Shown: one piece after another, positions 21,665 to 22,079 of the stretch
Position numbering within the stretch: the first letter of the stretch is position 1
Layout of the letters: every line of letters starts with the position of its first letter
Assembly (NCBI GenBank): GCA_947626765.1
Contig: CANQTQ010000003.1
Span: forward strand, 4,362 to 68,361
DNA: 64,000 nt
Direction: 5' to 3'
Source: an uncultured Clostridia bacterium
GTDB lineage: Bacteria; Bacillota; Clostridia; TANB77; CAG-508
Position numbers and translations under genes: made by a program
Notes under the pieces: model-generated
Databases searched by the model: none
Told to the model about the DNA's origin: nothing
The model's input: only the letters and a program-made list of their open reading frames with translations

Positions 21665-21803
21665 GATTTTTCCCTCACTTTATATTTCATCTATACCAAA
21701 ATCTATATCATATTTTACTTCTTTAGTAATATGAGTCCTTCCAACACCTAATTGTCCTGTTTTTCTTAAAAATGTATGTGTCTGTTTAGAGCGTATCATA
21801 CAC

Positions 21804-22079
21804 ATGATAAGAGCAGATATAGAAACAGAGGTATCTCCTATTGTTGGAAGTGAAAAACAATCAGAAGATTTAGTAAACTATTTGCTTTCTGAATTTGAAT
21901 CTGACCCTAAAAAAATCTGGGAATCTAACATCTTTGGTAAAAACTTGCATGAACTTGTAAATGAAGGACTTCAAAATAAGCTTTCTAGAATGCCAGAAGA
22001 TGCACAAGCAAAATTGCAAGAAACATTAGAGAGAATTGTAAATGAAGGTAGTGGCGGATTAATTTGTATTATTCTTTAA
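21804..22079 (+). pseudogene. spoIVA: 3' fragment of the stage IV sporulation protein A gene (C-terminal ~90 aa; the frame is open upstream to ~21700 with no start or N-terminal ATPase domain)
   Basis: The C-terminal sequence ..NIFGKNLHELVNEGLQNKLSRMPEDAQAKLQETLERIVNEGSGGLICIIL matches what I recall of the SpoIVA C-terminus. There is no RBS or start. The frame runs upstream until it meets the RadC-like gene on the opposite strand. Confidence 0.45.

Follow-up and report, generated by a model that had tools for sequence, protein, structure and literature searches.

What has become of spoIVA in a genome where only the 3' end of this essential spore-coat gene can be seen? The question is raised by a 64,000-nucleotide stretch of DNA from an uncultured Clostridia bacterium (contig CANQTQ010000003.1), referred to here in its full length as the window, in which the end of spoIVA abuts an island of RadC-like, sortase and adhesin genes. 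An earlier note, made from the sequence alone, had taken the fragment for the remnant of a core gene truncated by an insertion. Our analysis indicates that it is very probably the spoIVA segment at the right-hand attachment site (attR) of an integrative conjugative element (ICE) of the large serine recombinase (LSR) type, integrated at a dedicated chromosomal attachment site (attB). An insertion did cut spoIVA, but the description as a lost remnant fits poorly, since the attachment site is reused and neither half of the gene contains a stop codon or a frameshift. Probably the gene has not been destroyed but split in a way that can be undone.

The fragment occupies positions 21798-22079 of the plus strand and corresponds to codons ~400-492 and the stop codon, comprising the end of the middle domain and the entire C-terminal domain of SpoIVA. 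Within it, a plus-strand open reading frame (ORF) of 91 aa extends from 21804 to 22079, with the C-terminal end ...ETLERIVNEGSGGLICIIL. The SpoIVA identity that had been proposed, with the suggestion that it be checked by profile search, was confirmed: the ORF matches the Pfam domain SpoIVA_C (PF20439) over the whole model (positions 1-76 of 76, E=1.2e-39) as well as the final 15 model positions of SpoIVA_middle, and it covers positions 402-492 of the 492 in NCBIfam TIGR02836 (spore_IV_A; E=2e-45). Its score on TIGR02836 is 155.5 bits, compared to a full-length cutoff of 459.9 bits, and residues 1-399 are absent from the window; the 91-aa ORF is therefore a gene segment and not a complete SpoIVA. 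In tblastn searches of the 64-kb window the full-length SpoIVA of the closest relative with an intact gene (L013) matched with residues 400-492 only, at 21798-22076, and the 5' part of spoIVA was found neither with this protein nor with a B. subtilis SpoIVA sequence. Thus the ATPase domain, already reported as missing, and most of the middle domain are lacking from the window. The fragment is 99% identical to the C-terminus of the intact L013 protein. The end at 22079 given by the earlier note stands, but SpoIVA similarity begins at 21798 and not at 21700.

No Shine-Dalgarno sequence was seen before the ATG at 21804 on direct reading, in agreement with the earlier statement that a ribosome-binding site is absent; as to the absence of a start, the ATG is merely a native internal codon of SpoIVA, the conserved Met402. 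No sigma-70-like promoter was found in 21500-22300, where 4.7 were expected from shuffled sequences. The upstream frame, thought to stay open as far as the RadC-like gene, is in fact closed by a TGA at 21732-21734, 24 codons before the ATG. Downstream of the stop codon lies a terminator-like hairpin on the plus strand (22118-22158), with a 19-pair stem followed by a T run; one such hairpin was found after the stop, compared to 0.1 expected in shuffles.

We compared 80 loci from the closest genomes, all of them metagenome-assembled genomes (MAGs) of uncultured gut Clostridia of rabbit, mouse, human and ruminants. Full-length spoIVA is present in most of the 80. Three loci with intact spoIVA (L013, L014 and L015) align to the window from exactly 21798 rightward and show no similarity to the left of this position, which places the insertion boundary. 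The downstream order of gerA operon, rnr, secG, rplQ and rpoA is common to the window and these three relatives, so that the synteny comparison suggested earlier puts the fragment at the orthologous spoIVA locus. An intact allele (P0131) and a split allele (P0138) of spoIVA are nearly identical, and occupied and empty sites therefore coexist within a species.

The gene is cut at the same codon in 6 of the 80 loci (L012, L017, L020, L063, L078 and L092), and also in L045, at a contig edge. The element-side DNA differs among the cut loci, which have in common a motif, cTtc.GTTTG, then ~10 nt, then aCAY directly before ATGAT. An LSR gene abuts the 3' fragment directly in L012, L020, L063 and L078, with LSRs 41-52% identical, and many database proteins are LSR-SpoIVA_C fusion ORFs of 632-640 aa that run in frame with 91 SpoIVA codons. 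In all, at least five other elements with related recombinases occupy this codon in other gut Clostridia. Repeated hits at one codon are the signature of a conserved attB and not of random disruption. Since different elements reuse the breakpoint as a recombinase attachment site, the fragment is poorly described as a remnant of a lost gene.

The complementary part of the gene came to light when residues 1-400 of L013 SpoIVA were used as the query. It encodes proteins of 428-429 aa consisting of SpoIVA residues 1-401 and a short read-through tail. In L093-L095 the 429-aa protein is followed by converging LSR genes of 573 and 543 aa (LSR573 and LSR543), and the same order of spoIVA-5', LSR573 and LSR543 is seen in L093-L095, L098-L100 and L096. 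Each of the two LSRs has Resolvase, Recombinase and Zn_ribbon domains. On TIGR02836 the split pieces are complementary, covering positions 2-400 and 402-492. A conserved 50-aa ORF stands directly before LSR543, and beyond the LSR pair are small regulator-like ORFs, among them HTH and sigma-70 region-4-like proteins, and a Spo0A_C-like gene. Left-end contigs share their sources with other parts of the element. A single MAG, GCA_947623555.1, holds both L093, with the left end, and L017, with a homologous RadC-spoIVA-3' junction. One sample yielded L100 (LSR543, LSR573, the left-hand attachment site attL and the end of spoIVA-5'; 3.4x) together with L004 (3.1x), which carries a 91-aa attR segment identical to that of the window; another yielded L113 (conjugation module, 6.74x) and L094 (attL end, 6.67x). 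The search for the 5' part elsewhere, proposed in the earlier note, thus recovered intact codons 1-401 on companion contigs, but no linkage to the window molecule.

The nearest solved structure to LSR573 is 3g13, the catalytic domain of a "putative conjugative transposon recombinase". The best NCBIfam matches of the LSRs are to CcrC and CcrB, at 106-126 bits compared to cutoffs of 700-900; they are therefore not members of the Ccr family, and the likeness lies at the level of the LSR superfamily only. LSR573 and LSR543 belong to the LSR superfamily, but to neither the Ccr nor the XisF family. No recombinase more than 38% identical was found in annotated phage and plasmid collections.

The two ends share a 14-bp att core, ATACACATGATAAG, located at 21798-21811 and identical in attL (L093) and attR (window). 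The attL site reads ...CCTAGTATA CACATGAT AAG TTCTAAACAGA..., and attR reads ...TCTGTTTAGA GCGTATCATA CACATGAT AAGAGCAGAT.... The P arm of attR contains the repeat TCTGTTTAGAGC (21781-21792), whose inverted partner, GCTCTAAAC(G/A)GA, is found at attL, where it adjoins the recombinase gene. The window P arm is reverse-complementary to the P' arm of L100 at 11 of 12 positions and to that of L093 at 10 of 10, and a motif akin to it (cTtc.GTTTG) is found in five other elements at an equal distance from the core. From the symmetry of the two arms, which have an 18-22 bp spacer, the crossover dinucleotide is predicted to be the CA at 21801-21802, in the His codon of ...S-I-H-M-I-R.... Joining the halves in silico gives ...KAKAPSIHMIRADIETEV..., which is in frame and the same as in intact genes.

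These sites suggest how the gene came to be split. An element-borne LSR very probably recombined the attachment site of the element (attP) with attB in spoIVA codon ~401 (...GCA CCT AGT ATH CAY ATG ATA AGA GCA...). On integration the tandem LSRs (573 and 543 aa) came to lie beside codons 1-401 at attL, and the RadC-like gene beside codons 400-492 at attR. Recombination between attL and attR would then restore an intact, in-frame spoIVA, because excision by serine recombinases is conservative. We infer that the window's own genome bears the LSR left end and that excision still happens.

The att region also has coding capacity on the opposite strand. A 41-codon minus-strand ORF (21680-21805) spans the att core and shares its frame with the LSR573 end, the codons L-I-M-C being common across the core, and LSR573 C-termini read ...ELIMC followed by antisense-spoIVA tails. 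Because of this shared frame the recombinase would gain a tail in the circular form, the 41-codon ORF being its predicted in-frame 3' continuation in the excised circle. In the integrated state the LSR573 ORF continues beyond the att core for another 35-85 codons and stops in antisense spoIVA (L093 1362-1470; L100 10500-10610; proteins P0241-P0260), so that the C-terminus differs between the integrated and excised states. The P arm and 41-codon ORF (21680-21794) are identical to those of L017 at 114 of 115 positions, in elements otherwise 86-94% identical. All LSR573 homologues carry antisense-spoIVA tails, including longer ones of 596-623 aa; these had been considered as possible circular (attP) forms and were rejected, as the tails mark them as integrated. 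A look-up of RadC for the circular form returned attR contigs only. A 111-aa protein with an intact junction and 99% identity (P0001) was likewise discarded as a candidate for a rejoined gene, for it comes from other projects and from a lineage whose uninterrupted spoIVA contains a stop codon or frameshifts.

The DNA left of the breakpoint has the content expected of a conjugative element. On the basis of Pfam matches, positions 1-21797 (minus strand) represent the right-hand 21.8 kb of an ICE that runs past the left end of the window, and every ORF in 1-21664 is on the minus strand. From left to right, the first part encodes an N6/N4 DNA methylase, a TraC-like protein, type IV secretion system (T4SS) pilins, a TrbL-like protein (split), DUF7659 and a coupling protein (split), and the second part ArdA, DUF3560, metK, four SpaA-type LPXTG adhesins, a sortase and the RadC-like protein. 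The RadC-like JAB-domain gene (21089-21664, minus strand; PF04002, E=4e-28) is the last element gene before attR; its NCBIfam RadC matches are below the curated cutoffs, and it is 93% identical to the copy in L017, whose homologous element is 86-94% identical to that of the window. Contigs L112 and L113 match the window at 97.5% identity and add a further 7.5 kb of element DNA to its left, with genes for a VirB4-like ATPase, an M23 peptidase, HTH regulators, MazE, Lgt and LspA. The element thereby includes a Firmicutes-type T4SS set of VirB4-like ATPase, coupling protein (T4CP), TrbL/VirB6-like protein, pilin and cell-wall hydrolase. In the ~40 kb of element DNA covered, several ORFs without a Pfam match being left aside, no relaxase domain was recognized. 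The inserted DNA is an integrative conjugative element of at least 32 kb, and probably of more than 40 kb. The earlier note was right that the RadC, sortase, adhesin and metK block is inserted DNA, being the right-hand part of the conjugative element, and its alternative suggestion of an insert of at least 21.7 kb that includes metK, with the left part of spoIVA beyond the window, is the one favored by the evidence: intact 5' halves stand next to tandem LSRs on companion contigs, and the element reaches at least 7.5 kb further left than the window.

The coupling-protein and TrbL-like genes are each present as two overlapping ORFs in every variant of the element seen (window 3040-3904 and 4768-6667; L112 6344-8243 and 9110-9974), and TrbL is split at different points, as 193+113 aa and as 198+82 aa. 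Since both genes are split in all variants, transfer competence is doubtful. The element may be conjugation-defective, as the skin element is a defective prophage, or the split of the coupling protein may be a conserved feature. The combination in one ICE of a methylase (825-1544), ArdA (10427-11671) and a SAM synthetase of its own, metK (13222-14355), looks suited to evading host restriction at entry.

Other accounts of the junction were weighed against integration at a dedicated site. As the source is an uncultured gut bacterium known from metagenome assemblies, and several contigs break near the junction region, the join of island and spoIVA could be a misjoin in a metagenome-derived contig. 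However, an identical junction of the RadC-like gene and spoIVA-3' occurs in 11 contigs from at least seven samples and in MAG GCA_947627105.1, in assemblies that differ in origin (ENA SPAdes, megahit-type, Logan and NCBI MAG); one contig, L001, is 99.995% identical to the window, and L017 carries a diverged homologous junction. The junction is therefore not an assembly artefact, and we rejected a chimera as extremely improbable. It is also most improbable that the fragment is a small stand-alone paralogue with a start of its own, a full-length spoIVA lying elsewhere in the genome. The ORF does start with ATG, a terminator-like hairpin follows it, and gene callers list the 91-aa protein in many assemblies, but it sits where spoIVA natively lies, the gene order downstream being conserved, and it already resembles full-length genes from the att core on, two codons ahead of the ATG. 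That the ATG is the conserved Met402 codon, the lack of a ribosome-binding site and of a sigma-70-like promoter, and the existence of complementary 1-401 fragments all tell against this account as well, and it was rejected.

A weightier alternative is that an insertion, or an insertion and a deletion, left a dead remnant in a lineage that is abandoning sporulation, so that spoIVA is never rebuilt and the organism is asporogenous. The 5' part is missing from the window, and three genes downstream are split in the window strain by frameshifts: gerAA (24172-25909; 458+109 aa), gerAC (27209-28253; 142+224 aa) and the RNase R gene rnr (28836-30864; 479+207 aa). The interruption of gerAA and gerAC reported earlier is thus real; GerAA is intact in L013 (611 aa) and RNase R in L002 (676 aa), L002 and L015 likewise have a fragmented gerA operon, and as the splits recur in independent assemblies these are true pseudogenes. 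In a sister lineage (L101, positions 1639-3121, L104 and L106) an uninterrupted spoIVA has acquired a premature TAA (…CAL*EVKAT…) or 1-nt indels in several unrelated samples, and its C-terminus is still 99% identical to that of the window, so that conservation of the tail does not by itself prove function. The frameshifts in the coupling-protein and TrbL genes point in the same direction. On the other side, intact 401-codon 5' halves with intact LSR pairs are found in the MAG that has a homologous attR and in the sample that has a window-type attR, and the breakpoint is a symmetric att site and not a ragged deletion. The P arm is nearly invariant between diverged copies of the element. Over the 91 codons the window and L002, both carriers, differ by 9 synonymous and no non-synonymous substitutions, and between the window and L017 the 3' fragment has a dN/dS of 0.02. 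In three carrier lineages the 5' halves have no stop in 400 codons and a dN/dS of 0.08-0.14, compared to 0.06-0.29 for intact genes. Stops and frameshifts appear in the dead copies of the sister lineage, whereas the split copies have none. The reading of an asporogenous lineage in decay is weakened by these observations, and we regard a dead remnant as improbable.

If spoIVA is instead split and restorable, the timing of its restoration becomes the question. The breakpoint lies within the coding sequence of a sporulation gene expressed in the mother cell (spoIVA codon ~401). In B. subtilis spoIVA is a sigma-E target. It is listed as a target of sigma-E, the mother-cell factor, in C. difficile as well (PMC5025042). 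By analogy with known elements of this architecture (skin, SPbeta, vfbin, vrin, gin and yin), and from mother-cell expression of spoIVA and the constraint on the split gene, we suggest tentatively, at a little under an even chance, that excision takes place in the mother cell, which is terminally differentiated, so that the host sporulates and the spore genome keeps the element. Otherwise, excision may serve transfer of the element only, and carriers would sporulate poorly or not at all. A more specific proposal, which we consider rather unlikely, is that a natural conjugative element whose transfer genes are decaying but whose tandem-recombinase module is conserved acts as a developmental switch for spoIVA, being excised in the mother cell at the very start of the sigma-E phase to rebuild the gene of the ATPase that serves as the base for spore-coat assembly, with the Spo0A-like protein as a possible source of the timing signal.

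Several observations, in addition to the decay of gerAA, gerAC and rnr, weigh against a gene that is split, rejoined and used in sporulation. The action of SpoIVA comes so early in the sigma-E phase that there is little time for excision driven by sigma-E. No sigma-E or sigma-K promoter was detected in 3.6 kb by the LSRs in three elements, using strict patterns from which the consensus may differ here, and alignment of the divergent promoter region at the recombinase operon was uninformative. The small genes near the LSRs resemble the regulatory module that a conjugative element ordinarily carries. In part of the clade spoIVA is being lost through ordinary decay, and sporulation may be dispensable in the clade. 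As to constraint, dS is saturated (>1) in most of the other comparisons, and between the window and L002 the element is 98.2% identical compared to 93-96% for the chromosomal flanks; the insertions may accordingly be younger than the strain split, and independent, which weakens the argument from 9 synonymous and no non-synonymous changes. For the molecule of the window itself no left end was obtained, and in blastn and tblastx comparisons of L112 and L113 with the recombinase-end contigs no contig joined the conjugation module to the LSR end. Among the contigs examined for carriers there was no excised attP junction and no attB junction of the same strain.

Other mobile or conjugative elements are also integrated by LSRs, sometimes by tandem pairs, among them Tn5397 with TndX, the CTn elements of C. 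difficile and SCCmec with CcrAB. None of these is known to target spoIVA, and no report of spoIVA as an integration target was found in the full-text literature searched, in which coverage of subscription journals is poor. The architecture is that of a sporulation-gene intervening element; its new features are the spoIVA target, the T4SS conjugative vehicle and the tandem recombinases. As in the skin elements of sigK (B. subtilis SpoIVCA; C. difficile CD1231/CD1234), a mobile-derived insert splits a mother-cell sporulation gene in two. In skin an LSR gene at one end lies beside the gene segment, and precise excision rejoins the frame (PMC4191935, PMC5025042). The target of skin, however, is a late sigma factor, whereas SpoIVA is a coat-basement ATPase of the early sigma-E stage; skin is a defective prophage and not a T4SS conjugative element with two tandem LSRs; and excision in sporulation, like any directionality factor, is hypothetical for the present element.

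SPbeta in spsM, with SprA and SprB, is similarly an LSR-integrated element in a sporulation gene, and one that is still mobile. Its att sites consist of a ~16-bp core with inverted repeats (PMC4191935). Phages and conjugative elements have been shown by experiment to be able to exchange their site-specific recombination units (PMC6957869). Yet SPbeta itself is an active phage, and the conjugative element given its recombination unit was an engineered chimera, whereas here the conjugative element is natural. An SprB-like factor with a sigma-E or sigma-K promoter was not identified near the LSRs by the strict pattern search of three elements. The gin element in gerE of B. cereus ATCC 10987 (girA, girB and girC) resembles the present one in being a non-prophage intervening element with several recombinase genes, and its horizontal spread via conjugation was suggested by its authors (PMC5595907). 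It is small and has no conjugation genes of its own, unlike the present element, which carries a full T4SS gene set, albeit with frameshifts, and a cargo of adhesins, metK, methylase and ArdA. Another clostridial LSR-type element in a sporulation gene is yin, in yabG of C. botulinum, whose integrated and excised forms coexist in culture (PMC10747680); it is prophage-like and described in a single strain, whereas several types of element make use of the spoIVA site, in many uncultured Clostridia of the gut.

A sporulation gene found split is as a rule annotated as a pseudogene, and whether a gut bacterium can sporulate is often judged by whether core genes such as spoIVA are present and intact. 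If a family of recombinase-borne elements reversibly splits spoIVA in many uncultured gut Clostridia, carriers would be wrongly called non-sporulating, and the principle of skin and SPbeta, an element hiding in a gene that only a terminal cell needs, would come to include conjugative elements and a structural gene that acts early. It would also raise the question of how excision could keep pace with the demand for a protein that is required immediately after asymmetric division. Were the element a developmental switch, no earlier intervening element would be known from an early morphogenetic sporulation gene, and none that is a natural conjugative element; it would also be part of a recombinase family that targets a single codon throughout uncultured gut Clostridia. 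The recombinases constitute a new clade, none of whose matches in the phage and plasmid collections searched exceeds 38% identity, and with their defined, highly conserved 40-bp target they are candidate genome-engineering tools for Clostridia.

Distant paralogues of Spo0A lie near the recombinases in two types of spoIVA-targeting element (L093 7073-7747, L098 5280-6014, L100 4190-4921 and L063 2202-2924). In the ICE copies, of 224-244 aa, only Spo0A_C was detected; the L063 copy, of 240 aa, has both receiver and Spo0A_C. They are 26-27% identical to host Spo0A and could tie the element to the onset of sporulation. A genuine spo0A (272 aa, receiver and Spo0A_C; L098 15101-15919) is located 2.3 kb from spoIVA in the lineage of L098 and L099. 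The neighborhood of HI0933-like, Impact_N and spo0A genes seen there was not found within ~9 kb upstream of spoIVA in L013, L015, L016 and L019, nor in the shorter upstream stretches of L014 and L101; the DNA upstream of spoIVA therefore varies within the clade.

One of the other elements inserted in spoIVA, in L012 (1-8320), carries a urease gamma/beta/alpha operon, an arginase, two P-II proteins and an ABC transporter beside its recombinase. This 8-kb region looks like a nitrogen-metabolism cargo island and not like phage or conjugation genes. The sole match among IMG/VR viral contigs has an intact spoIVA, giving no sign that the other elements are prophages.

Two smaller features lie downstream of the fragment. 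Between the spoIVA stop and gerAA is a frameshifted VWA/GBS104-like tip-pilin gene with an LPQTG sorting signal (22171-23974, minus strand). It is present in the window and L001 and absent from L002-L005, L013 and L015, where the spoIVA-gerAA gap is ~330 nt, and is a strain-specific 1.7-kb insertion outside the ICE. A sequence of ~140 nt downstream of gerAC (28272-28412) has a 90% identical copy in L002 (10464-10605); in L002 and L004 the copy lies between spoIVA and gerAA, and the sequence is a small dispersed repeat.

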